From Escherichia coli (GTDB taxonomy: Bacteria; Pseudomonadota; Gammaproteobacteria; Enterobacterales; Enterobacteriaceae), in assembly GCF_024223415.1 (NCBI RefSeq), contig NZ_CP100500.1: 64,000 nt of DNA. One strand, given 5' to 3'. Numbering within the stretch: position 1 is the stretch's first letter; the number at the start of each line of letters is the position of its first letter. Below are positions 685 through 17,192 of the stretch, one piece after another. A program made the translations under genes and the position numbers. Under the pieces are notes generated by a model. The model searched no databases. It was not told the origin of the DNA and saw only the letters and a program-made list of their open reading frames with translations.

Positions 685-1038
685 TCACGCGCTCAGGTGA
701 ATGAGTTGCAGGTGACGCAGGGTACGGACATCTTCCCTGGCCTGTTCGATACAGGGCAACAATGCTGCCGAATCCGTTTTATCCTCATTGTTGTCAAAGA
801 TAATCCCCGATTCGCAGTCGGATATTGTCCTGCAGCCACGCAATGTTGTAAACGGTGGTGGAGTGCAGGTTGACTGCTGGTCAGGGTCGTCCACCACGCG
901 GAGTGAATAACCGTATTCAGCGACCTTGTTAATCAGTTCAGTGAGCTCAACACCATCAATGTCAACGACAATTCGCCCTATATTCAGTGCCTGTACGTTA
1001 ACGCTGTCTGCTTCCAATGTCAGGGCCAGTTTCATCAT
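685..1038 (-). CDS. yeeW: YeeW-like protein (DUF5983)
   Basis: 117-aa ORF overlapping the cbtA stop by 4 bp; conserved position after the CbtA toxin gene. Confidence 0.7.
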   Translation of the reverse strand: MMKLALTLEADSVNVQALNIGRIVVDIDGVELTELINKVAEYGYSLRVVDDPDQQSTCTPPPFTTLRGCRTISDCESGIIFDNNEDKTDSAALLPCIEQAREDVRTLRHLQLIHLSA

Positions 1039-1409
1039 TTCGCCTCCGGATACTTACCCAGGGTAATGTTATTTACCGTTCTGTAATTGTCGCGGGTCAT
1101 CAGGCCGGTCGCCCTGCGAGCCCGGAGGATATCGATGCTGTTTATTAACTGAGAGCGGGTACAGGTGCTGAATCCCGGCTGGTCGGTACGCACCAGCGCG
1201 TATTTTTCCACGAGAAAGTTCACCGCATCACACAGTGAAATGCCAGCCTCAATATGCTGCTCAATCACACGTTCATCGGCAAACGGTGTGTCATGCAGTG
1301 TGAGGCCGTAATGCTGGTCCAGCAGCCGGGTCAGCAGTATCTGCCAGATTTCAAGCGGAGACGGGCGTGAACTGGCCGCTTGCTTGGGTAATACAGGTAA
1401 TGTTTTCAT
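1035..1409 (-). CDS. cbtA: CbtA (YeeV) family toxin, cytoskeleton-binding type IV TA toxin
   Basis: 124 aa, MKTLPVLP...ILLTRLLDQHYGLTLHDTPF... near-identical to remembered E. coli YeeV/CbtA. Confidence 0.9.
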   Translation of the reverse strand: MKTLPVLPKQAASSRPSPLEIWQILLTRLLDQHYGLTLHDTPFADERVIEQHIEAGISLCDAVNFLVEKYALVRTDQPGFSTCTRSQLINSIDILRARRATGLMTRDNYRTVNNITLGKYPEAK

Positions 1410-1454
1410 TTTAAGTTCTCAGTAATGGGGGAGATAAAGGTGAGATATTCGGGA

Positions 1455-1817
1455 TTATGCTGTTGTTGCGGGAACTGCTGGTGTCGGATAAACAGCCATA
1501 TAAACGTAGCCACAACTGCCGAGGGTGTCGGCTTCGCAGGTCAGCCCTTTTGCATACAGCGTGACGGTATGCTGATGACGGGGACTGAGTTCACCGCTGG
1601 TGAGCATTAATTCCAGTTGTTTCATCAGCAGCGGAAAGGCCTGGTCCGGATGGTATGCATCTGCGTCGCTGAAGCGGCCTCTGATACCGGCGCGGTCGGC
1701 AAGGTAATGCAACCGGTTACCCTCCTGCACCAGACAGGCCCCGAAACAGGGCGTCACGGTGCAGGGTAGTCCCCACCAGGGGCGGTCGTGATTGTCGTCG
1801 GGGAGTGTGTCTGACAC
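1455..1817 (-). CDS. cbeA: CbeA (YeeU) family antitoxin
   Basis: 120 aa, MSDTLP..DNHDRPWWGLPCTVTPCFGA...; immediately upstream of cbtA. Confidence 0.9.
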   Translation of the reverse strand: MSDTLPDDNHDRPWWGLPCTVTPCFGACLVQEGNRLHYLADRAGIRGRFSDADAYHPDQAFPLLMKQLELMLTSGELSPRHQHTVTLYAKGLTCEADTLGSCGYVYMAVYPTPAVPATTA

Positions 1818-1892
1818 GATAAAGTCCTCACAGAAAATCGGTTAAGAATGGTCCGGTAGTGGCGATAATTCTGCTCATCAGAATGCCCTGAC

Positions 1893-2114
1893 TCAGTTCA
1901 GGGTGACACTCATCAGGCGGACATACGGGCCAAAACTGTCCTTACGGCGTTCTGCAAATACAGCCAGCACACCGGGAATATCCTGCACTTCACGACCGGT
2001 ATACGCCTCAGCACTGCCGTGCCAGCGGTATTTACCGGTACAGAACGGAAAAAGACGGGATGTCGGATGTTGTTGGTGAATACGCATGGCTTCACCACGG
2101 GTGATAATTTTCAT
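1893..2114 (-). CDS. yeeT: YeeT-like protein (DUF987)
   Basis: 73-aa ORF in the conserved position between the radC-like gene and cbeA. Confidence 0.75.
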   Translation of the reverse strand: MKIITRGEAMRIHQQHPTSRLFPFCTGKYRWHGSAEAYTGREVQDIPGVLAVFAERRKDSFGPYVRLMSVTLN

Positions 2115-2176
2115 AATGGGATACCTCTGAAGACAGAAGATAAAAGTGAAAACAGGTGTGATGTGGTTGTGACGGG

Positions 2177-2668
2177 TTAAAGCAGACCATGTTCGGCAAA
2201 GGAGAAAACCTGGCTGCCACCGACTATCAGATGGTCCGGCACCCGGATATCCACCAGGCCCAGTGCCTGTACCAGACGTTCCGTGATAAGGCGGTCTGCC
2301 TTGCTGGGTGTGACTTCACCGGACGGGTGATTGTGCGCCAGCACCACGGCAGCGGCATTGTGGTACAGGGCGCGTTTAATCACTTCCCGGGGATGGACTT
2401 CCGTGCGGTTGATGGTGCCGGTGAAGAGGGTTTCACCGGCAATCAGCTGATTCTGGTTATTCAGATACAGCACCCGGAATTCTTCACGCTCCAGTCCCGC
2501 CATGTTCAGAATCAGCCATTCCCGTGCCGCACGGGTGGAGGTGAAGGCCACGCCGGGTTCATGAAGATGGCGGTCCAGGGCTTTCAGGGCCCGCTGAATG
2601 AGGCTGCGCTCGCCGGGCGTCATCGCTCCGGGCAGAAAGGAAAGCTGCTGCATTGTCCCTGCCTCCAT
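2177..2668 (-). CDS. yeeS: RadC-like JAB-domain protein (YeeS/YfjY family)
   Basis: 163 aa with JAMM-like motif HNHPSGEVTPSKADRLIT. Confidence 0.85.
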   Translation of the reverse strand: MEAGTMQQLSFLPGAMTPGERSLIQRALKALDRHLHEPGVAFTSTRAAREWLILNMAGLEREEFRVLYLNNQNQLIAGETLFTGTINRTEVHPREVIKRALYHNAAAVVLAHNHPSGEVTPSKADRLITERLVQALGLVDIRVPDHLIVGGSQVFSFAEHGLL

Positions 2669-3154
2669 TCAGTCGATAATGCGCATAATGGCGCTGCATT
2701 CCGGATGCTGCAGGGCGTAATCCCGCAGCCGGTAATAATGGACCGTCATGGCATAACACTCCGTACGACAGGCATGATGACTGTACGTCATCAGACAGGC
2801 AGCAATGCCGGCGGCTTCCGGGCTCATTTCAGCGCGGTTACCGTTCATGGCATTGAACAGTACCCATGTTTCGTCATCATCGTCATCCGGTTCGGGTGCC
2901 ATAAATGCCCCGCCATTGTTCAGGGTGTACAGATTCCAGATACCACCGCAGTAGTCTTCGCACAGACGGTCCATCCAGCCGAAGACACGGGGCTCCAGGG
3001 CCACCCACTGTGGAATGAGGCCAAAGTGCTGCGGCCAGAAGCTGATGCGCTGTTCATCAGGGACTATGGTGGCAACCAGTTGAGACTGGTTATTCCCTGA
3101 TGCAACGGTTACGGAAACAGAAGGTGTGGTGGAATTATGCGAAGAGGTTGTCAT
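2669..3154 (-). CDS. Antirestriction protein (ArdB/KlcA-like, YfjX family)
   Basis: Acidic DDDDDE stretch and conserved island position; start chosen at MTTSSHN after an AGGA ribosome-binding site. Confidence 0.8.
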   Translation of the reverse strand: MTTSSHNSTTPSVSVTVASGNNQSQLVATIVPDEQRISFWPQHFGLIPQWVALEPRVFGWMDRLCEDYCGGIWNLYTLNNGGAFMAPEPDDDDDETWVLFNAMNGNRAEMSPEAAGIAACLMTYSHHACRTECYAMTVHYYRLRDYALQHPECSAIMRIID

Positions 3155-3245
3155 GAGATTATTCCTTATAAAAAGCAAATGAATGGAAGAATGCCTGGGG
3201 ACTGGTACAGACGTGAGTCAGGGCTGCACTTTCAGGGAAACAGCA

Positions 3246-4064
3246 TCAGCGCAGGCTCTCCAGCAGCGTTTCTGCCATCACCCACAATGCGCGGTTGAGC
3301 CTAATGTCCGTGTCGATGCTGTGAATGGCACGGGTGTGGATACGTTTTCCTTTAGCGCTGCGACCGGAAATCCCGCCTTTCAGCATATTCTCCTGGATGG
3401 TCTGATATGCACTCCACAGGTCCTTACCGTAATCCTCCCTGCGTCGTGGCGTCAGAATGTCGGCGGTGGTGACCGGCTGATGTTCGTCACCATAACGGTA
3501 AGTCAGTGCCGCCTGTGCCAGCGCCTGACGTGCCGGTGGCGGCAGGACCAGAGACTGCATGGCATCACGCTTTTCCTCAATCCGGTCAAAAACGCCCACT
3601 ACCTCGTAAGCCCCTTCAATGACTCTGTCCACCACATTTCCCCGGTGGGGCACACGGACTTCCCCCAGAGACTGACCGCAGACGCAGCCGTTCTGGCAGA
3701 CGAATCTGAAGTAACCCGGCAGCATCTGGTAGCTGGAGGTACCGTCATGGGAGTTGAGCAGAATAATTTCAGGGACATGTTGTCCGGTTATCTCCCCGGC
3801 CCGCCGCAGACGCAGCATGTGTCTGGTGTATCCCCGGCGGCCCGGGTCGCGCACGCGGGTCTGGCAGGCGAAGAATGGCTGAAAACCTTCCCGCTGCAGG
3901 CTTTCCAGTACGGTGATGGTGGGAATGTACGCATAGCGTTCACTGCGGGAGGTATGCCGATCTTCCCCAAAAATACTGGGTACATAGTGCATCAGTTCTT
4001 CATGTGTCAGCGGACGGTCACGGCGTATCTGGTTTACATGACCAAAACGACTTGCTAATCGCAT
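3246..4064 (-). CDS. DUF932 family protein (YfjQ/YafZ-like)
   Basis: 272-aa ORF in the conserved position downstream of the island GTPase. Confidence 0.8.
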   Translation of the reverse strand: MRLASRFGHVNQIRRDRPLTHEELMHYVPSIFGEDRHTSRSERYAYIPTITVLESLQREGFQPFFACQTRVRDPGRRGYTRHMLRLRRAGEITGQHVPEIILLNSHDGTSSYQMLPGYFRFVCQNGCVCGQSLGEVRVPHRGNVVDRVIEGAYEVVGVFDRIEEKRDAMQSLVLPPPARQALAQAALTYRYGDEHQPVTTADILTPRRREDYGKDLWSAYQTIQENMLKGGISGRSAKGKRIHTRAIHSIDTDIRLNRALWVMAETLLESLR

Positions 4065-4154
4065 GATTTGCTCCTTATGAATGAGTTAGCGGTATAAATG
4101 AAAAAGCCGCGTCTCCCGGAGAAGACGCGGCCTGACCGATGAAATGAATGACGT

Positions 4155-4388
4155 TTATTGTCTGAGAAGCCCTTCACTGGCGAGCCACGCATTAAGTTGT
4201 TTGCCGGCATCGTATTCAAAATTCCAGCACCGCCAGCGCAACTGACATTCAGCATTGTGGATAACCAGCCGGAAATGCGTTCCCTGGTCATTTTCGATAA
4301 ACACATTGCGATAAGCTGTTGTGATGGCAACCGCCTGCTCTCGAGAGAAAGGGCCTTCGGGCAATAAAACAGGGTGACAGTCCGACAT
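4155..4388 (-). CDS. UPF0401/DUF905 family small protein (YkfF-like)
   Basis: 77 aa, [13 protein letters not shown]...[10 protein letters not shown]...[15 protein letters not shown] resembles the YkfF family of CP4 islands; family from memory. Confidence 0.55.
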
Positions 4389-4393
4389 ACCGG

Positions 4394-5071
4394 CTATTTT
4401 CCGATAAATTCAACGCTGGCACCGGTGGCATTACCGTCAGCACCAACCGTGACGGTCACTTTGTCGTACGCACGGTCTTCAGGATTGAACACTTCAAACT
4501 CAACCTTATTGCCTTTTACTTCGTAAGAGCCAAAATCAGCGGTTTCTGTTGTTTCCTCGTCATATTCCCGGGCGTATGCCTGCCGGGCAGCCTGCAGGAC
4601 GGAATCTTTATTAATGGCGGGTGTCTGTTTCGGGGAAAAATCGGCAAGTGATGTGACAAATTTCGGACAGACCTTCAGCATATCACCGCGGGTGAATTCC
4701 ATTCGTACACCAAATGCCTGTAAAACGGACACATCACGCTCTGCTATGGAGTGAACGGCTTTTTTGACCATTTCCGGCGCCTGTCCGACTTCCACCTCAA
4801 CAGCCCTGAATCCTGTCTGCTGATTACACATTTGTGATGTGGGGATCAGGTTACCGTTAATATTGATACGGCTGCCCAGGAGCGTCTGTACACCATTCGG
4901 GCATCCCTGCATCAGGCCGGTAATACCAATCGTGCCATTTTTCAGCATTACCAGCGCCTGACCATCTTCCGTCATGGTCTGACACCAGCCGTTTTTGACA
5001 GCCCAGTTGCCGGCGGAGGCGGAGAATGATGCCACAGTGAACAGCAGGGGAAAAAGAATTCTGGTATTCAT
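4394..5071 (-). CDS. Secreted hypothetical protein
   Basis: 225 aa with N-terminal signal peptide ([20 protein letters not shown]); same strand and spacing as neighbouring island genes. Confidence 0.6.
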
Positions 5072-5189
5072 GACTGACCTCTGAAATTAAAGAGCGTGTT
5101 ATTGATAATGACAGACGGTATACGGCAGTGGTTACCGTAATCCGTTGTCGTGTAAAGGTATACGGTTGCCACGGGGGACTCCGGGGCGC

Positions 5190-6074
5190 TCAGAACAGGT
5201 GATCCCACAGTGTGACCAGCAGGTGGATAATGCGGTCCCGGGTTTTGCGCAGAAGCTGTAACATCCAGGCCGGAAAACTGAAACGGGCAACGGCGTCGTC
5301 AAAACTTTTCCCGATGGTTTCACCAAAAGTCTGTTGTGCGTGTTTCCGGGCCTGTTCAGAGCGGTTTTCCCCCCGGATATGTGAATAAACCGCACTGGTT
5401 GCCTGTGGTGGCAGTGCGTGGATCATCAGCGACACAAACGCCGGAAGGTTCCAGCCGACAGGTGCGGCAACGGAGAGTACCGGAAATGATGAAGGGAACA
5501 GGGTTGCCACCCGGGCTGTCACCGTCGCCAGTGAGAGCGCCTGCTGACGGGACGGGCATTTTTCTGTGTCGTTCCATTCTTCAGCAGGAAACACGCGATC
5601 GGCATGGCTGAGAACAAACAGAAAACGCGAGGGATCTGCACCTTCATTCAGTAAAAACTGATGCATGGCAATATCAGCAGCATACGCACGTTCATCAGCC
5701 CGCAGGATCCAGATAATCAGATCCAGTTCGGGCAGTAACTGACTGTAAAGTGCCCGGTATTCCTGATCATGCTGTGGTGTTTCGCCAGTGCCGGGCAGAT
5801 CGACCAGCGTCATTCTTCGTTCACCGGGCTGAAAGGTAAGACGATGAGCCTGACGGGTGCAGCCGTTCAGCGGATGCGTGGCGCAGACACGGGACTGAAA
5901 AATGGCATTGCACAGGCTGCTTTTTCCGGCACCGGATTTACCCATAATGCCAATAACGGGTTCGTACTGAATGACGCTGCGAAGATGTTCAAGGATTTTC
6001 TGGCGAATTTCTTCAGGAAGAAAGGTCAGATGTGACTTTACGTGTGCGGAGAGGGAAGAATGGCTGAATGACAT
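5190..6074 (-). CDS. Island GTPase (YeeP/YkfA/YfjP family)
   Basis: P-loop GIMGKSGAGKSS and DLPGTGE motifs; 294 aa. Confidence 0.85.
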   Translation of the reverse strand: MSFSHSSLSAHVKSHLTFLPEEIRQKILEHLRSVIQYEPVIGIMGKSGAGKSSLCNAIFQSRVCATHPLNGCTRQAHRLTFQPGERRMTLVDLPGTGETPQHDQEYRALYSQLLPELDLIIWILRADERAYAADIAMHQFLLNEGADPSRFLFVLSHADRVFPAEEWNDTEKCPSRQQALSLATVTARVATLFPSSFPVLSVAAPVGWNLPAFVSLMIHALPPQATSAVYSHIRGENRSEQARKHAQQTFGETIGKSFDDAVARFSFPAWMLQLLRKTRDRIIHLLVTLWDHLF

Positions 6075-8981: not shown

Positions 8982-9713
8982 ATGAATCAACCAATACACA
9001 ATGCTTACTGGTTATCCCGTTTTGACAGCCTTCTCGACAGTGCCCTGTCGCAGCACCGTGCCGTCTCGTTAATCCGGGTGGATTTACGTTTCCCTGAGTA
9101 TATGCCTGTCACCATCATGGATCCCGATCCGGATTCAGCGGTGATTTCTCGTTTTTTCGAATCCCTGAAAGCCAAAATCCAGGCTTACCAGCGGAAAAAA
9201 CGACGTGCCAACAAGCGTGTGCGTGCAACCACTCTGCGTTATTTCTGGTGTCGGGAGTTTGGCAAGGAAAAAGGCAGGAAACATTATCACGTGATATTGC
9301 TGCTCAACAAAGATACCTGGTGCTCGCCAGGGGATTTCAGCGAACCATCTTCGCTGGCGACGATGATCCTGGAGGCATGGTGCAGCGCCCTGCATCTTGA
9401 GGCCTGGCAAGGCGATGGCCTGGTCCATTTTTCCAGGTGGACGCCTTCCCGTAAACCAGCATCGTCTGATGCTCGCCCTTCTTCCGATGACACGCCTTTG
9501 TCGGGTGGATGTTCTGATACCAGGAAGGCTTCAGAAAAAAAGCCGGGTGAAGCCGCTGTTCTCTGGATCAAGCGTGGTGATGTGGAAGCGCTGCAGAAAG
9601 CCCGGAACAGAGCCAGTTATCTCGTGAAATATGAGACGAAGCAGCATGACGGTTCCGGGCAACGTAATTATGGTTGCAGTCGTGGGCCGGGGCGTCTGCT
9701 GGATGGCAGGTGA
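8982..9713 (+). CDS. Inovirus Gp2-family protein (YagK/YfjJ-like), copy 1
   Basis: 243 aa; HYHVILLLN motif typical of Gp2-family island proteins; preceded by a conserved leader motif. Confidence 0.8.
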   Translation: MNQPIHNAYWLSRFDSLLDSALSQHRAVSLIRVDLRFPEYMPVTIMDPDPDSAVISRFFESLKAKIQAYQRKKRRANKRVRATTLRYFWCREFGKEKGRKHYHVILLLNKDTWCSPGDFSEPSSLATMILEAWCSALHLEAWQGDGLVHFSRWTPSRKPASSDARPSSDDTPLSGGCSDTRKASEKKPGEAAVLWIKRGDVEALQKARNRASYLVKYETKQHDGSGQRNYGCSRGPGRLLDGR

Positions 9714-10039: not shown

Positions 10040-10642
10040 TTGTGGGCTGCGTATAACGGAACATATCTTATGAATGCTATCCCTTATTTCGACTATAGCA
10101 TGGCGCCCTTCTGGCCATCTTATCAGAACAAAATCATCGGCGTTCTCAACCGTGTGTTGCGCGAGCAGTCCTGCTCCCGAATACGGCGGATCCTGCTTCG
10201 TCTGCCGGGGGAACATGGCAACATCTTCAGCGACAGAAAAACCTGGTTCGGTATGGCCTTTATCGAAACCGTCAGTGCGCTGATGAATGCAACACCCGGA
10301 CGTGACCTCTGCTGGCTCCTGACTCGTCATCCTGAAAAACCGGAATACCACGTGGTGCTGTGCGTCAGACAGGAGTATTTCGACGGCCCTGAACTGGATC
10401 GGCTGATTCTGGATGCCTGGAGCAACGTACTGGGCTTCGCGTCACCGGGTGAAGCGGCACCGTACCAGAAACAGATAACCCGGGATGTGGTGCTGGACAG
10501 TTGTTCACCGGACTGCGAAGAGAGACTCAAAGAGCTGATATGGGCGTTCAGTGATTTCGCCCGCGATCATCGTGGTGTGCGCGATCCGGAAGCCCGTTAC
10601 CTCGCCGGTAATCCCTGGTATCCCGTAGCAGGCCAGCTCTGA
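10040..10642 (+). CDS. Inovirus Gp2-family protein (YagK/YfjJ-like), copy 2
   Basis: Paralogue of 8982-9713 (EYHVVLCVRQ motif); true start may be the internal Met near 10070. Confidence 0.75.
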   Translation: MWAAYNGTYLMNAIPYFDYSMAPFWPSYQNKIIGVLNRVLREQSCSRIRRILLRLPGEHGNIFSDRKTWFGMAFIETVSALMNATPGRDLCWLLTRHPEKPEYHVVLCVRQEYFDGPELDRLILDAWSNVLGFASPGEAAPYQKQITRDVVLDSCSPDCEERLKELIWAFSDFARDHRGVRDPEARYLAGNPWYPVAGQL

Positions 10643-10710
10643 AAGCTCAGCTCAGCAGATTCACCCGCATTTGCCCAACATTCATAAATCTCACAGAGGA
10701 CATTCTGACC

Positions 10711-10947
10711 ATGTTGACCTCAATGACAGGTCACGACAGCGTATTGCTGCGTGCCGACGATCCCCTGATCGACATGAACTACATCACCAGCTTCACTGGT
10801 ATGACCGACAAATGGTTTTACAAGCTGATCAGTGAAGGCCATTTCCCTAAACCCATCAAACTGGGGCGCAGCAGCCGCTGGTACAAAAGTGAAGTGGAGC
10901 AGTGGATGCAGCAACGAATCGAGGCATCACGAGGGGCAGCAGCATGA
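10711..10947 (+). CDS. alpA: AlpA-family phage/island regulatory protein
   Basis: 78 aa with HTH and conserved WYKSEVEQWMQQR C-terminus. Confidence 0.75.
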   Translation: MLTSMTGHDSVLLRADDPLIDMNYITSFTGMTDKWFYKLISEGHFPKPIKLGRSSRWYKSEVEQWMQQRIEASRGAAA

Positions 10948-11057
10948 AACGTGTTGTAATGCCGGTACGCTGGCAATGTGCAAAATACCAGCGTTGGTAT
11001 TGTGGAAGCCGGCCCTGTCCCTGGTGCTGGCGACACTCCCGCTCATCTTTCTGCTGA
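10944..11057 (+). CDS. Small Cys/Trp-rich peptide (37 aa), possible zinc-ribbon protein
   Basis: ATG overlaps the alpA stop (ATGA coupling); MKRVVMPVRWQCAKYQRWYCGSRPCPWCWRH has a C-x7-C-x4-C-x2-C pattern; below the ORF-track cutoff, read by eye. Confidence 0.35.
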   Translation: MKRVVMPVRWQCAKYQRWYCGSRPCPWCWRHSRSSFC

Positions 11058-11149
11058 CACCCTCTGGTCAGCCAGCGGACTATCGTCCTTTCCTGACCGA
11101 TTCGTCATTCCATTCTTATTGATTATAACTGGCATTACACCGGTGCCGG

Positions 11150-11760
11150 CGTGCTTTTCTGTAGATCTGCACCGGTTTAACAAAATTCGACAAGGTTTGA
11201 AGGAGTATTCTGTGCAAATAAGCGAGGCCCTAATTTCAGAACCGGGGAAAATCCAGCGTTTTGTTCAGCAGGCGGTGGACCACTAGCCGCGTCTGCTGGC
11301 AGTCCACTTCACGCTTGATTCGGCTGAAGGGAATATTGACGAGGGGCAGATTCATGCATTCTGTACTGCCTTTTACCGACAGGTGCACGAGCGTATTACT
11401 GAACGTAATCACACGGCCAGCCCATCCTCGCCGGTGGTATTACGCTGGTTGCGGGAACAACATGGAGGAGCAACAATACGATGCCTGTTGCTGTTCAGCC
11501 AGGAGCTTTTCTGCCATCCGCGAGCCAGTGTGACAGTTGATGAAGAATGTTCACAACTGGTGGATTTACTACAACAGACTTGGCAGGTGATAAGCGCTGG
11601 CGGACAATGCCGGGTGGAAAAGCGTTTTCAGGTCGTCCGGGGTGATACATCTGGCCAGTATGTTGCGTTAAAAACAGTCGCATTGTCTCTGGGGTTACCG
11701 GTTGTGATCGCCATTACCCATCGTCCGGTACAGCGCTGTACATTGATTACAGCTCAGTGA
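11150..11760 (+). pseudogene. Gp2-family gene, copy 3, frameshifted
   Basis: Gp2-like segments (LLAVHFTLD..., ...HGGATIRCLLLFSQE) spread over three overlapping frames. Confidence 0.5.
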
Positions 11761-12882
11761 ATCAGCGCAGTTGTGCAGTCAACGAGGTTTTCTGGCTTTT
11801 CGTCGGTCATTCAGCATCATTAAACGGGTCTCTGCCTCTTTCTGTTCCTGTGGTGTCACTTCCCCGCACGGCTGACCGTTCAGGTTGTAACGGGCGCCAC
11901 CTGCTATTAACGCACGGTAATAGCGCGGAGACTGCACATAAGACGCCACTGCTGCATGTAATGTACCAGCGCCAAACGCCAGTTCTCGGATGGCGATATC
12001 CTGTATCAGGTCGTCAGGTATCCCCACTTTAAGTGGTTTTGTTTTTTTCCCGGTTGAATGACTCAGGCCAGAGTTCCACAAGACGAATAATGCGCTTACG
12101 GTTTTTGCTCTGGCGTTTTGTCATGTCGCCACGGTGTTTTATCAGCAGGTTTCTGTTTATCGTTCAACTGTGGTATCTGGTCACCGGCCTTCATTTTGTA
12201 TGCTGTGTCCGTTTTATTCTGCAGCGGCGTTGCCGGTGATTTACTGAAAATACCCTGCGGTTTACGGTTAATGGTCAGAGTTACCATCAATTTTGTTACC
12301 TCGCGCTGTCAATGGAAGTAGTACCTCATCCGATATCTGAAAATGTTTTCCGGTGGATGTTACAGCGAATTTCATGTAAGACATGTTGTTGTCGGTATTG
12401 TTCAGTACTGTGCGTTGTGAGCGTATTCGTTATCAGACAGAGGGGCAGGGAACAAACGTCAGAGGTTAAGGATATCCGGGAACAAATGGCGTAAACGGAC
12501 ATCTCAGTGCCTGAGAAACAGTACAGGTCAGGCCATCATGGCCTGCAAACAGAGCCCTGGCGACCCCGTGGCCGAAAACGAAACAATAACCCGCGCGCAG
12601 TGCGAGGAATCCGGATGTGAAGCAATCAGCAGGTAATATTAATGGCAGGACCAGCAGGTTCTTTAAACAAACGAACATGCTGTAATTGATATTTTGCTTA
12701 TTGTATTTTCTTTTTAGTTATTAAATTAATTTATTTACGAAAAATTTTCTGCAGATACAGGATGGGAATTCAGGGTGTCATCACGCCTTATGATGACACC
12801 CTTCCCCTGGTTGTGGAAAACCGAAGGATATATCAGGTTCAGCAACAAAATCAGTGAGCTGAAAGATACCAGTCCCCCAGCT

Positions 12883-13902
12883 TCAGCAGCTTTCACGTAA
12901 ACATAAACAGGGCTCAATGAATATCTGATTGCTCCAGTTACCTTCTTTAATTCGTTCCAGCAAAACATTTCCTGCTTCCAGACCAATTTTCCTGTGAGGA
13001 ACGGCCATTGTTGTTAATGATGGTTGGCAAACTTTGCTGACGTCACTGTCACCAAATCCTACTACGGCGAGCTCGTCTGGAACTTTGATCCGTCTTCGTT
13101 GACATTCATAGAGAACACCGCAGGCTAACTCATCTGACACACATACCAGGGCATCCAGTTCCGGCCATGCGAGCAAAAATTCCGGTAGTTGTGATGCTCC
13201 GGTGGAAAAAACAGGTGGCAGAGCAGCGTTAATAACACGGTTGGGAGACATATGATGGCGTAACATAGCTTTATACCATCCCTGTAAATGCTGCTGAAAG
13301 ATCCACTGTTCCTGGTTAGCGCATAGCAAACCGATATTCTGATAACCACGTTGTACCAGCATATCCGTCAGCTCGAACATTGCTGCAACATTATCAATAC
13401 CAATGTTGATATCTATCGGATCAGTACGAATGGCACCGATTTCTATAACAGGAATCGAGGCATTTTTGAGCAAGTGACGCACGGTACTATTATGCTCAAC
13501 ACTAAGCAAAATTGCTGCAGCGATATTAGAAGCCAGCAGGGTTTCCAGCAGTTTTTCTTCTTGTTCCAGACGATGGCGTGACTCAGCCAGGATTATTTGA
13601 TACCCCGCTGGTTGTAGCACATGTTGCAGCCCGGCAAACATTTCCGTGCATCCCGCTTCAGCCAGGTTTGGCACGACCATTGCGATCGTGTGTGAAGATG
13701 CCGATGCCAGTGCGCTTGCAGTGAGGTTGGGCATATACCCTAATTCATTAACTGCGGCTTCAATCTTCTCCCGCAATTTATCTGAAACTTGTTCGGGAGT
13801 GCGTAACGCTCTGGATACAGTCATTGTGCCAACTCCCGCGAGTTGCGCGACATCAGCAATAGTGACTTTACCTGTACTACGACGTTTTCGGGTTATTGCC
13901 AT
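12883..13902 (-). CDS. LacI-family transcriptional regulator
   Basis: 339 aa; N-terminal HTH VTIADVAQLAGVGTMTVSRAL and periplasmic-binding-like body; divergent from the PTS/transketolase operon. Confidence 0.85.
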   Translation of the reverse strand: MAITRKRRSTGKVTIADVAQLAGVGTMTVSRALRTPEQVSDKLREKIEAAVNELGYMPNLTASALASASSHTIAMVVPNLAEAGCTEMFAGLQHVLQPAGYQIILAESRHRLEQEEKLLETLLASNIAAAILLSVEHNSTVRHLLKNASIPVIEIGAIRTDPIDINIGIDNVAAMFELTDMLVQRGYQNIGLLCANQEQWIFQQHLQGWYKAMLRHHMSPNRVINAALPPVFSTGASQLPEFLLAWPELDALVCVSDELACGVLYECQRRRIKVPDELAVVGFGDSDVSKVCQPSLTTMAVPHRKIGLEAGNVLLERIKEGNWSNQIFIEPCLCLRESC

Positions 13903-14034
13903 ACAAAATCCTGCTCAGCGACTACATATGGAGATCTTTTATTACTTATCATCAACGGCTTCCTGCACTGCCAGTAGCAGAGTATACCTCTTAATATCTG
14001 CCATAAGTCTGGATTTAATCAGTGAAATCTATTT

Positions 14035-14082
14035 TGATAGCGCTATCACAAATTCGAACAATACCTCCTGATAGCGCTATCT
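14035..14082. promoter_or_regulatory. Two LacI-type operator palindromes (TGATAGCGCTATCA)
   Basis: Perfect 14-bp palindrome at 14035-14048 and a 13/14 copy at 14069-14082 in the divergent intergenic region. Confidence 0.5.
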
Positions 14083-14153
14083 TTGTGATATTGATCGCAG
14101 ATATACCGTCGTTACTTGAATACATTCTGGTCATATAAATAAGAAATTAGGGG

Positions 14154-14603
14154 GTGGGAGTGCTTAATATCTGGCTTTCTGATTCAACAATCGCATTACG
14201 AAAGAATGCCGCAACCTGGCAGCAGGCATTAGATATCTGTGCCAGACCGTTACTGGATGCAGAGATAATTACGACGGATTATCTCAGTGCGATAAAGACA
14301 CAACATGAAAAACTGGGGCCTTATTATGTCCTGGCACCCGGGCTGGCCATGCCGCATGCCCGACCAGAAGAAGGGGCAAAAGGATTAGGTTTATCATTAT
14401 TAAAACTTGAAGAAGGTGTCAGTTTTCATACAGAGGAATTTGATCCTGTAGATGTTATCATTTTACTTGCCGCACCAGACAAACACAGTCATATCGAAAT
14501 GATATCTGCACTGGCTGAGTTATTCTCCAGCGAAAAAGATTTACATGAATTGCATCAGGCTTGCAATGTGGAGGAAATAAAAAAGATAATTTCACGGTTC
14601 TGA
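14154..14603 (+). CDS. PTS ascorbate-family EIIA component (UlaC/SgaA-like)
   Basis: PYYVLAPGLAMPHARPEEG active-site region; GTG start at 14154 or 14160. Confidence 0.8.
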   Translation: MGVLNIWLSDSTIALRKNAATWQQALDICARPLLDAEIITTDYLSAIKTQHEKLGPYYVLAPGLAMPHARPEEGAKGLGLSLLKLEEGVSFHTEEFDPVDVIILLAAPDKHSHIEMISALAELFSSEKDLHELHQACNVEEIKKIISRF

Positions 14604-14681
14604 TTACATTATAAATTCAGTCTTTTCACAACATTGCGCCGTTGCGTGATGGGACTTCTTCAACTTAAAATGGTGAATATA

Positions 14682-14954
14682 ATGAAAATTATGGCTATTT
14701 GTGGCTCAGGGCTTGGTAGTAGTTTTATGGTCGAAATGAATATTAAAAAAGTTCTGAAAAAAATGGATATAGAGGCGGAAGTGGAACATTCCGATCTCTC
14801 ATCAGCAACGCCAGGGGCTGCCGATTTATTTGTGATGGCCAAAGATATTGCTGCCAGTGCCAGCGTACCGGAAAGTCAGTTGGTGGTTATCAACAACATC
14901 ATTGATATTAATGAACTCGAAACGCAACTGCGTAACTGGTTAGCAAAACAATAA
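14682..14954 (+). CDS. PTS ascorbate-family EIIB component (UlaB/SgaB-like)
   Basis: MKIMAICGSGLGSS with catalytic Cys; start placed at the ATG at 14682. Confidence 0.8.
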   Translation: MKIMAICGSGLGSSFMVEMNIKKVLKKMDIEAEVEHSDLSSATPGAADLFVMAKDIAASASVPESQLVVINNIIDINELETQLRNWLAKQ

Positions 14955-14970
14955 CCTTAATTGAAGCGAG

Positions 14971-16365
14971 GTGGATATGTTTATCCTTGAAACGCTGAAT
15001 TTTGTTGTTGATATACTTAAAGTGCCCGCGATACTGGTCGGCTTGATTGCCTTAATTGGTCTGGTTGCCCAGAAAAAATCTTTTTCAGATGTTGTTAAAG
15101 GTACAATTAAAACTATTCTCGGCTTTATTGTACTGGGCGGTGGTGCCACTGTTTTGGTTGGTTCGTTAAATCCTCTTGGGAGTATGTTTGAACATGCCTT
15201 TAATATTCAGGGCATCATTCCGAATAATGAGGCTATTGTTTCTATTGCGCTGGAAAAATATGGCGCATCGACGGCCCTTATTATGGCATTTGGTATGGTG
15301 GCGAATATTATTGTTGCCCGCTTTACCCGCCTTAAATATATCTTCCTGACCGGACACCACACATTTTACATGGCCTGCATGATTGGTGTGATTCTGACAG
15401 TGGCTGGTTTTGAAGGTATATCACTGGTCTTTACCGGTTCTCTTATTCTGGGACTTGTGATGGCATTTTTCCCGGCATTAGCACAACGCTATATGAAGCG
15501 TATTACGGGGAATGATGACATTGCTTTTGGTCACTTTGGCACTCTGGGATATGTACTTTCTGGCTGGATTGGCAGCGTGTGCGGTAAAGGTTCCCGCTCC
15601 ACCGAAGAGATGAATTTGCCCAAAAATCTGAGCTTCCTGCGCGACAGTTCCATCTCTATTTCTCTTACGATGATGGTGATTTATCTGATCATGGCGATCA
15701 GTGCTGGTCGTGAGTTCGTTGAAAGCCAGTTCAGTGGTGGTCAAAACTACCTTGTCTACGCCATCATAATGGCCATCACCTTCGCTGCTGGTGTATTTAT
15801 TATTCTGCAAGGCGTGCGTTTAATCCTTGCTGAAATAGTTCCGGCATTTACCGGGTTTTCAGAAAAGCTGGTGCCGAATGCCCGTCCGGCCCTCGATTGC
15901 CCGGTTGTGTATCCGTATGCGCCAAACGCAGTGTTAGTTGGTTTCTTGTTTAGCTTTTTTGGCGGTCTGGTAGGGCTATTTTTGTTGGGACAGATGAAAC
16001 TGGTGTTGATTCTTCCGGGTGTCGTTCCTCACTTTTTTACCGGGGCGGCTGCTGGCGTATTTGGTAACGCTACGGGGGGACGTCGTGGCGCAATGATTGG
16101 TGCTTTTGCGAATGGCTTATTGATTACCTTCCTGCCTGTACTGTTATTGCCGGTTCTTGGGGCGATAGGCTTTGCTAATACGACCTTTTCCGATGCAGAT
16201 TTTGGTGCTGTCGGCATCGTCCTCGGAAACCTGGCACGTTATCTCTCACCTTTTGCCATCACCGGACTTGTAGTAGCGCTATTTGTGCTGCTGGTTGCCT
16301 GGAACATTTTCGCCAGTAACAAAATCGCTGCCAAAGCGCAGAAGAAGAGTGGAGCCAAATCATGA
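14971..16365 (+). CDS. PTS ascorbate-family EIIC permease (UlaA/SgaT-like)
   Basis: 464-aa polytopic membrane protein immediately after EIIB. Confidence 0.85.
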   Translation: MDMFILETLNFVVDILKVPAILVGLIALIGLVAQKKSFSDVVKGTIKTILGFIVLGGGATVLVGSLNPLGSMFEHAFNIQGIIPNNEAIVSIALEKYGASTALIMAFGMVANIIVARFTRLKYIFLTGHHTFYMACMIGVILTVAGFEGISLVFTGSLILGLVMAFFPALAQRYMKRITGNDDIAFGHFGTLGYVLSGWIGSVCGKGSRSTEEMNLPKNLSFLRDSSISISLTMMVIYLIMAISAGREFVESQFSGGQNYLVYAIIMAITFAAGVFIILQGVRLILAEIVPAFTGFSEKLVPNARPALDCPVVYPYAPNAVLVGFLFSFFGGLVGLFLLGQMKLVLILPGVVPHFFTGAAAGVFGNATGGRRGAMIGAFANGLLITFLPVLLLPVLGAIGFANTTFSDADFGAVGIVLGNLARYLSPFAITGLVVALFVLLVAWNIFASNKIAAKAQKKSGAKS

Positions 16366-17192
16366 ATGTTAAAGAATTGACTCAATTTGCACGGGATATA
16401 CGTATCCAGACGCTTAAATCATTAACTCATCTCGGCTTCGGTCATTATGGTGGCAGCATGTCGGTTGTGGAAACGCTGGCAGTGCTTTATGGCGCTGTAA
16501 TGAAAATTGATCCTGCTGCTCCCGACTGGCCTGAGCGTGACTATTTTATCCTGTCCAAAGGACATGCCGGACCTGCTCTCTACAGTACTCTGGCGCTGAA
16601 AGGCTACTTTCCACTGGAAGAATTAAGCACCTTAAATCAGAACGGAACCCGCTTACCAAGTCATCCGGATCGGCTAAAAACGTGTGGTGTTGATAGCACC
16701 ACAGGATCGCTGGGGCAGGGGATATCCATTGCCGGAGGGATGGCGCTGTCGCATAAACTGGCGGGGCGCAAGAATCGGGTTTTTTGTATTGTCGGCGATG
16801 GCGAACTTAATGAAGGCCAATGTTGGGAAGCTTTCCAGTTTATCGCGCATCATCGTTTGAATAACCTCACTGTGTTTGTGGACTGGAACAAACAGCAGCT
16901 TGATGGTCAACTGGATGAAATTATTAATCCATTTGATTTGGAAGGAAAATTCCGGGCTTTCGGTTTTGATGTCGTGACAGTGAAGGGCGATGATATTGAG
17001 GGCTTGTTGAATGTAGTTAAACCTGTCCTGCCAGCTGAGGCCAGACCGAGAGTGGTCATTCTCGATAGCATTAAAGGGCAGGGGGTGCCGTGTCTCGAGC
17101 AACTCAGTAATTCTCATCACTTACGCCTCACAGAAGAGATGAAGGGGACGCTAAACGAAACAATTCGCCAACTGGAGGCTATGCATGATTAA
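16362..17192 (+). CDS. Transketolase, N-terminal (TPP-binding) subunit
   Basis: GHYGGSMS and GDGELNEGQ motifs; 4-bp overlap with EIIC; resembles the split transketolase of ExPEC tkt1 islands. Confidence 0.85.
   Translation: MNVKELTQFARDIRIQTLKSLTHLGFGHYGGSMSVVETLAVLYGAVMKIDPAAPDWPERDYFILSKGHAGPALYSTLALKGYFPLEELSTLNQNGTRLPSHPDRLKTCGVDSTTGSLGQGISIAGGMALSHKLAGRKNRVFCIVGDGELNEGQCWEAFQFIAHHRLNNLTVFVDWNKQQLDGQLDEIINPFDLEGKFRAFGFDVVTVKGDDIEGLLNVVKPVLPAEARPRVVILDSIKGQGVPCLEQLSNSHHLRLTEEMKGTLNETIRQLEAMHD

Follow-up and report, generated by a model that had tools for sequence, protein, structure and literature searches.

Does the 37-codon, Cys- and Trp-rich open reading frame (mini-ORF) that begins within the stop codon of an alpA-family gene encode a protein, or is the product of this locus made from the hydrophobic frame that overlaps it? 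Both frames had been pointed out as possible unannotated small genes in the initial annotation of the window, i.e. of the whole 64,000-nt stretch of Escherichia coli DNA analysed here. The arrangement described there was confirmed: the mini-ORF ATG (10944–10946) overlaps the alpA TGA (10945–10947) in the sequence ATGA (10944–10947; gap −4 nt), its 37 codons translate to exactly the string noted, and the second frame is present, running from an ATG at 10976 to a stop at 11122. The features concerned are:

10711–10947, + strand: alpA-family helix-turn-helix gene, 78 aa, with a match to Pfam PF05930 (Phage_AlpA); upstream partner of the mini-ORF
10944–11057, + strand: mini-ORF, 37 codons plus stop, product MKRVVMPVRWQCAKYQRWYCGSRPCPWCWRHSRSSFC, with its ATG in the alpA TGA; divergent relative of PF11682 (Zn_ribbon_11)
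10976–11122, + strand: overlapping hydrophobic 48-aa frame (MCKIPALVLWKPALSLVLATLPLIFLLTPSGQPADYRPFLTDSSFHSY), inside the ORF 10832–11122; judged not to be a gene

Taken by itself, the mini-ORF of the window lies within chance, as the 4.5 kb between 9000 and 13500 hold, wholly or in part, 67 ORFs of 25 aa or longer, and searches of Pfam (no PF11682 match at E ≤ 1), NCBIfam, PHROGs and PADLOC with the window mini-protein gave no match. Both observations would suit an ORF that arose by chance and owes its Cys pattern to coincidence. What raises the mini-ORF above chance is that the same frame is conserved in other genera. Loci from these genera were fetched by AlpA homology alone, with one genome per species, and of the 36 close AlpA loci obtained, 12 carried a Cys-rich ORF in the same frame starting −1 to +20 nt from the alpA stop. 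By a local HMM scan, 15 of the 36 loci carried the mini-ORF 3' of alpA, which added Rosenbergiella to Citrobacter, Superficieibacter, Siccibacter, Tenebrionibacter, Hafnia, Kosakonia, Trabulsiella and an Enterobacteriaceae MAG. Wherever it was found, the mini-ORF was on the same strand as alpA and just 3' of it; among those loci that were checked for a Shine-Dalgarno motif, the distance was −1 to +17 nt. Conservation in related islands, on which the initial annotation had staked its proposal, was found: at least eight genera beyond E. coli, all enterobacterial, have the Cys frame directly 3' of alpA. The products, for example MKKWNNVKSGSIPPRWICERCRRQYCGEKPCPFCWRVISRM, MEKQRRTKPQNIPARWKCPRCRRQYCGARPCPVCFRTSVASAQP and MSALKYNRRKAVSAKTSRAVSAGIPTRWICPRCRRQYCGAKPCPFCHRIV, have in common the motif P-x-RW-x-C-x2-C-x4-[C/S/G]-G-x3-C-P-x-C, and in the cross-genus alignment W10, C12, C25 and C28 are invariant, and C15 and G21 almost invariant. 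In view of the cross-genus conservation, the synteny with alpA and the selection described below, a chance origin of the ORF is effectively refuted already, and we give it almost no credence.

Selection acts on the Cys frame alone. For a cross-genus core of 25 codons, Nei-Gojobori pN/pS was 0.30 in this frame (pS 0.67) and 1.48 and 1.13 in the other two, the set having been chosen by motif, which lowers pN somewhat. The mean pairwise difference across genera at the three codon positions of the Cys frame was 0.25, 0.27 and 0.55, with both TGT and TGC in use for the conserved Cys. Among the E. coli-like copies, which come from metagenomes and are not independent samples, 14 of 29 polymorphisms were synonymous in the Cys frame compared with 19.5% expected (P = 4 × 10−4), the other two frames showing 8/29 and 9/29 (not significant). 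The codon-level analysis that had been suggested for the locus thus pointed to purifying selection in the Cys frame only.

Could the DNA instead be conserved for a role in cis, as an AlpA site, an attenuator, a leader peptide or an sRNA, with the ORF as a side effect? The E. coli copies are 83–93% identical over an 801-nt query (10600–11400), coding and non-coding parts alike, short Trp/Cys-rich ORFs can be leader peptides, and a hairpin resembling a terminator lies downstream of the mini-ORF:

11129–11159, + strand: terminator-like hairpin (11129–11149) with T-rich tail, a weak consensus match, 3' of the mini-ORF

The hairpin may be the end of the alpA–mini transcript, but terminator-like sites were not more frequent than expected from shuffling (2 seen, 1.2 expected; not significant), and Rfam covariance models run over both strands of 10400–11800 gave no match at E ≤ 1. 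Moreover, the genera differ at 55% of third codon positions while the peptide motif has been kept, and the homologues checked in other genera have only 1–3 Trp but retain the Cys ligands, the Trp-rich sequence of the window mini-protein being particular to the E. coli lineage. A cis role as the reason for the conservation is therefore highly unlikely in our view.

Profile searches showed that the family to which the conserved peptides belong is very small, with 15 clusters and, at 50% identity, 24 representatives; its members of 46–61 aa keep RW-x-C-x2-C-x9-C-P-x-C. Several of these have Ser or Gly where the middle Cys would be, suggesting that the ligands are the first, second, fourth and fifth Cys. 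All five distant members checked lie 2–118 nt 3' of a Phage_AlpA gene (alpA stop to mini start, +2 to +118 nt), and their islands carry various of the YagK_YfjJ_C/Rep-G2P, GTPase and DUF932 genes. With a gathering threshold of 24 bits, PF11682 was matched by P0077 (44.5 bits), P0068 (30.9 bits), P0073 (30.0 bits) and P0065 (27.3 bits), and P0067 (23.3 bits) as well as the AlpA-anchored homologues of other genera (16.8–20.5 bits) scored below it. A form with Cys15 from locus L003 that is nearly identical to the window mini-protein had no Pfam match at E ≤ 10. In a profile–profile comparison with hhalign, the E. coli group aligned with the above-threshold PF11682 members at a probability of 97% (E = 8.8 × 10−11, 30 aligned columns). 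The window allele has C12, Y15, C25 and C28 plus C20 in place of the four-Cys CxxC…CPxC pattern. By these comparisons the window mini-protein, which is below threshold and lacks the second Cys, is a divergent relative of PF11682 and not a formal member, and the mini-ORF adds to this uncharacterised family a new and divergent relative that has mostly gone unannotated.

The sequences thus show that the frame is conserved and under purifying selection, that it lies in synteny with alpA and that its product is homologous to PF11682. These results bear out the initial view of the mini-ORF as an unannotated gene of zinc-ribbon type. We consider it very probable that 10944–11057 is a real gene and that it encodes a basic zinc-knuckle/zinc-ribbon microprotein paired with alpA in CP4-like/YagK-YfjJ enterobacterial islands.

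The hydrophobic frame, which had been offered as a small regulator or membrane peptide, did not hold up as a gene. It has no counterpart in the AlpA-anchored loci of other genera, its cross-genus pN/pS is the 1.13 given above, and in the E. coli-like copies it is conserved for about 20 residues overlapping the zinc-ribbon core and then scrambled by frameshifts. Its relation to the mini-ORF becomes apparent from a segment bounded by direct repeats:

10959–10991, + strand: segment between 7-nt direct repeats, ATGCCGG (consensus) at 10959–10965 and, in the window, the degenerate ATACCAG at 10985–10991

In the consensus of 92 copies, ATGCCGG occurs at +16 and +42 from the ATG, a spacing of exactly 26 nt, and recombination between the two copies has removed 26 nt in some E. 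coli islands, as seen in the alignment with VE-V10-F and in 16 of 118 copies. This loss destroys the first zinc knuckle and puts the hydrophobic frame behind the coupled ATG. In VE-V10-F, PGAP has annotated from the same ATGA a hydrophobic 52-aa 'hypothetical protein' (WP_000831911.1; MKRVAMSALVLRK... / MKRVAMSALVLRKSALSLVLATLPFIFLL...), the exact sequence of which is present on at least 1000 contigs; locus L002 (3348–3506) has the form with the 26-nt deletion. WP_000831911.1 resembles the mini-ORF product in its locus, in its ATGA-coupled start and in its occurrence in E. coli islands, but differs in being the product of the 26-nt deletion in the hydrophobic frame, with no protein-level homology to the zinc-ribbon product. 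Probably this 52-aa protein is what a frame shift has left behind, annotated systematically in error. The hydrophobic peptide had been favoured as the true gene on account of this 52-aa protein and of a protein search returning 47 clusters of hydrophobic peptides (those with a named source mostly from E. coli, with diverse N- and C-termini), and was dropped after the AlpA-anchored loci and the frame-by-frame tests.

That the hydrophobic frame is nevertheless the true product, a small membrane peptide, with the Cys frame incidental, would agree with its being open for 96 codons in the window and with its being joined to the coupled ATG and annotated in the deletion alleles. The chances of this are exceedingly small in our judgement, given its absence from other genera, its synonymous fraction of 9/29 within the E. 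coli-like copies, the frameshifts past the overlap with the core, and the fact that the deletion is the derived state, flanked by a 7-nt direct repeat. As judged from the sequence comparisons, the hydrophobic frame is a by-product of the same DNA in another register: the richness in Leu, Val and Ala (CTG/GTG/GCG) on the one hand and in Trp and Cys (TGG/TGC) on the other arises because the same CTGGTGCTGGCG-type DNA is read in two frames.

With the Cys frame as the coding one, the state of the gene within E. coli was determined with a 21-nt anchor at the alpA stop, which yielded 117 usable E. coli-like metagenome copies (118 with the window). Of the 118 copies, 100 had a full-length N-terminus, 16 carried the 26-nt deletion and 2 had a nonsense codon at Trp10. 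Among the 100 full-length copies, the four-Cys core was intact in 81, 11 had Tyr as in the window and 8 were otherwise broken, so that disrupted copies (16 with the deletion, 2 with the nonsense codon and 8 otherwise broken) amount to about 22%. Past CWR (residue 30) the tails are free; some copies end there, including that of GF60, whose island is the one most closely related to that of the window, and others have unrelated tails created by frameshifts. From the comparison of copies, the conserved unit is the first 30 residues only, the tail varying freely:

10944–11033, + strand: conserved 30-residue core M1–R30 with the ligand positions, from comparison of E. coli-like copies
10977–10979, + strand: codon of C12, core ligand position
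10986–10988, + strand: codon TAC of Y15, at the position of the second Cys ligand
11001–11003, + strand: codon of C20, additional middle Cys
11016–11018, + strand: codon of C25, core ligand position
11025–11027, + strand: codon of C28, core ligand position

The pattern C-x7-C-x4-C-x2-C given in the initial annotation is correct for the window allele (C12, C20, C25, C28) but not for the family, which has C-x2-C-x9-C-x2-C and a middle Cys that can be dispensed with; the pattern appears in the window because the second ligand is Tyr here (TGC to TAC). Tyr15 is a minority allele, the consensus E. coli allele having Cys15. It accompanies a distinct AlpA sublineage (MLTSMTG...IEASRG), the tails that follow it are of several kinds, and the core is intact apart from Tyr15, suggesting that the allele has persisted for some time.

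While the gene family would be real, the window copy could be a non-functional relic in a degraded island. In line with this, Tyr occupies a nearly invariant ligand position, the downstream YagK-like gene contains an in-frame TAG (11284–11286), the orthologous ProQ/FinO gene of GF60 is annotated as frameshifted, and disruptions of other kinds affect about 22% of the E. coli-like copies. Against it stand the frequency of the Tyr allele (11/100), its intact core otherwise and its own AlpA sublineage, and Cys20 could act as the fourth ligand in the C-x7-C-x4-C-x2-C arrangement. We regard a relic as a serious possibility, though one to which we would not commit ourselves. The Tyr15 copy may be weakened, or Cys20 may serve as ligand instead, and this allele, situated in a decaying module, has roughly even chances of being functional.

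The position of the mini-ORF start would fit translational coupling with alpA. A ribosome-binding motif was recognised upstream of it:

10931–10936, + strand: Shine-Dalgarno-like GAGGGG, read from the sequence, 7 nt 5' of the mini-ORF ATG and inside the Arg-Gly codons of alpA

A purine-rich GAGG, GGGG or AAGGA sequence about 5–14 nt 5' of the start was present in most E. coli-like copies and in 15 of 15 non-E. coli homologues examined, and the coupled-pair architecture of the window (start overlapping the upstream stop, Shine-Dalgarno-like motif inside alpA) is kept in most E. coli-like copies. The upstream product matched PF05930 Phage_AlpA in the Pfam scan (E = 2 × 10−10, 40.8 bits, cut-off 21) and, weakly, TIGR01764 ('excise'), and its GF60 orthologue is named 'AlpA family transcriptional regulator' by PGAP. 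The AlpA family (AlpA/TorI/Vis/Hef/SEN1998, PF05930) consists of small basic winged-helix proteins that are excisionases or regulators of enterobacterial islands (PMC8844411). By analogy with this family, the AlpA of the window would be an excisionase or a regulator.

The two genes are occasionally joined. In about 11 of about 120 E. coli-like copies (P0056, P0062, P0066, P0070), a deletion between two GCAGCAGC repeats, located in the window at about 10871–10878 and 10936–10943 (region 10870–10946), has dropped the C-terminal third of AlpA and connected AlpA residues 1–54 in frame to the mini-protein (...PIKLGRSS-MKRVVMPVRWQC...). These AlpA::mini alleles could represent decay or a natural fusion.

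The window mini-protein contains no acidic residues and has a pI of about 10, and the alpA-linked mini-proteins are strongly basic throughout (pI 10–11, 0–2 acidic residues). An AF2 model (pLDDT 71) showed a beta-hairpin (residues 9–11 and 18–20) and a helix (26–34), a fold that, with moderate confidence, would place the first knuckle on the beta-hairpin and the start of the helix at CPxC, and would thus be zinc-knuckle/treble-clef-like. A Foldseek search of the model against the PDB returned nothing at E ≤ 0.001, the top non-significant hits being ribosome entries, and a PDB sequence search returned chance-level zinc-finger matches only. When AlpA and the mini-protein were modelled as a fusion with a linker (AF2, paired alignment of 20 loci), pTM was 0.40 and the confidence of the mini-protein part was no higher, which lends no support to a direct complex; this linker-fusion test is a weak one.

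From these data we infer the translation, zinc binding, partner and biological role of the mini-protein as follows. The microprotein would be produced alongside AlpA, by ribosomes that have come to the end of alpA or that bind the GAGG motif 7 nt upstream. It would fold around one Zn2+, with the CxxC knuckle in the beta-hairpin and CPxC at the start of the short helix. The resulting strongly cationic module could bind nucleic acid and/or the AlpA–RNA polymerase/recombination machinery, and this binding would modulate what the AlpA-type protein does in the island, be it excision or regulation. A bolder proposal is that AlpA of the commonest E. coli island family (CP4-like, YagK/YfjJ) needs a co-translated 30-residue zinc microprotein, acting as a second subunit or a built-in antagonist, which would set island excision, replication or transcription, and that the alleles seen in nature (the Tyr15 form, the 26-nt deletion that switches the frame and the AlpA::mini fusions) would tune island stability; we put it forward as a speculation that is rather unlikely to be correct in full.

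The locus is common in E. coli. The 801-nt query matched 2764 of 5426 complete E. coli genomes by megablast, and the 231-nt region with the mini-ORF was found in 2033 of them. In tblastn searches there was no match among phage records and 24 among 72,556 plasmids, suggesting that the gene belongs to islands and not to phages. Of the 60 best locus matches in complete E. coli genomes, 54, including UTI89, 536 and NU14, have alpA as the one RefSeq/PGAP annotation under the match; the mini-ORF of GF60 is likewise unannotated, and about 15 billion predicted proteins that were searched did not include the common 37-aa zinc-ribbon forms.

The island of the window contains CbtA/CbeA, RadC, DUF932, a YeeP-like GTPase and YagK/YfjJ genes, and is thus of the same kind as the islands of the distant family members. 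The CP4-like cargo (DUF5983 protein, CbtA toxin, CbeA antitoxin, RadC, DUF932 and YeeP-like GTPase) is encoded at 685–6074 (− strand). No tRNA genes were found in the whole 64-kb window, and no integrase domain among the island ORFs scanned against Pfam. The gene 3' of the mini-ORF (11212–11760), which has a GTG start at 11212 preceded by AAGGAG (11200–11205) and corresponds to a 182-aa hypothetical protein in GF60, looks YagK/YfjJ-like by eye and had no Pfam or NCBIfam match; its in-frame TAG stands where GF60 has Trp. It is one of three seemingly paralogous genes around alpA on the same strand (8982–9713, 10040–10642 and 11212–11760), only the first of which is above the Pfam threshold (YagK_YfjJ_C and Rep_ORF2-G2P), the others appearing divergent or decayed. 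At the island edge, a 100-aa ORF (11779–12081, − strand) corresponds to the ProQ/FinO-family gene that PGAP marked as frameshifted in GF60, and adjoins the LacI/PTS genes from 12883 on. These form a cluster (12883–17000) coding for a LacI-family regulator, an ascorbate-type PTS transporter and a transketolase; it is 99.9% identical to E. coli and occurs in only 133 of 5426 complete genomes, indicating that it is itself accessory DNA.

At this locus, gene callers have clearly passed over a conserved microprotein and recorded its shadow from another frame in its place. If the mini-protein works with AlpA, it would be an unrecognised component of an excision/regulatory module in very common pathogenicity-type islands, and it opens a way to test what PF11682 does. 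A literature search retrieved no paper mentioning PF11682, DUF3279, Zn_ribbon_11 or the peptide strings; such an ORF is not mentioned in papers on RgdR, the EcCIMP1 PICI and SEN1998, nor did a literature search on YagK/YfjJ return a description of the module.

Among known systems, PF11682 Zn_ribbon_11 ('probable zinc-ribbon'; 'putative zinc ribbon protein' at NCBI) is the one to which the mini-protein is related, through the common W-x-C-x2-C...C-P-x-C core. Its stand-alone members P0077, P0068, P0073 and P0065 (46–61 aa) are encoded directly after alpA in islands of the same kind as that of the window. The window mini-protein differs from PF11682 in its score below threshold, its Tyr at the second Cys, its extra middle Cys and its shorter length (30–37 aa). 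Many PF11682 members, moreover, are the C-terminal domain of DUF7828 proteins of roughly 150 aa, whereas the window has no such protein. In other genera, the alpA–mini pair is followed further 3' by one or two such proteins of about 150 aa, consisting of DUF7828 and a C-terminal Zn_ribbon_11 (L010, L011, L013, L014 and L015 at about 2900–3850; L163 at 3266–4053; L165 at 3636–4094), which have an N-terminal C-x2-C...F-x-H...C motif and are named only 'putative zinc ribbon protein'; such an island thus has up to three zinc-ribbon genes in a row.

The recombination directionality factors and regulators AlpA, TorI, Vis, Hef and SEN1998 are the group to which the alpA gene of the window belongs, but the mini-protein does not; we know of no characterised member of this group described with a coupled zinc-ribbon partner. 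The Ogr/Delta activators of P2 and P4 are small, basic, Cys4 zinc proteins of P4-like elements that contact RNA polymerase in transcription. At about 72 aa and with C-x2-C-x22-C-x4-C, they showed no sequence relationship to the mini-protein (no Ogr_Delta match in the Pfam scans), but as small basic zinc proteins of mobile elements they provide a plausible functional analogy to it.
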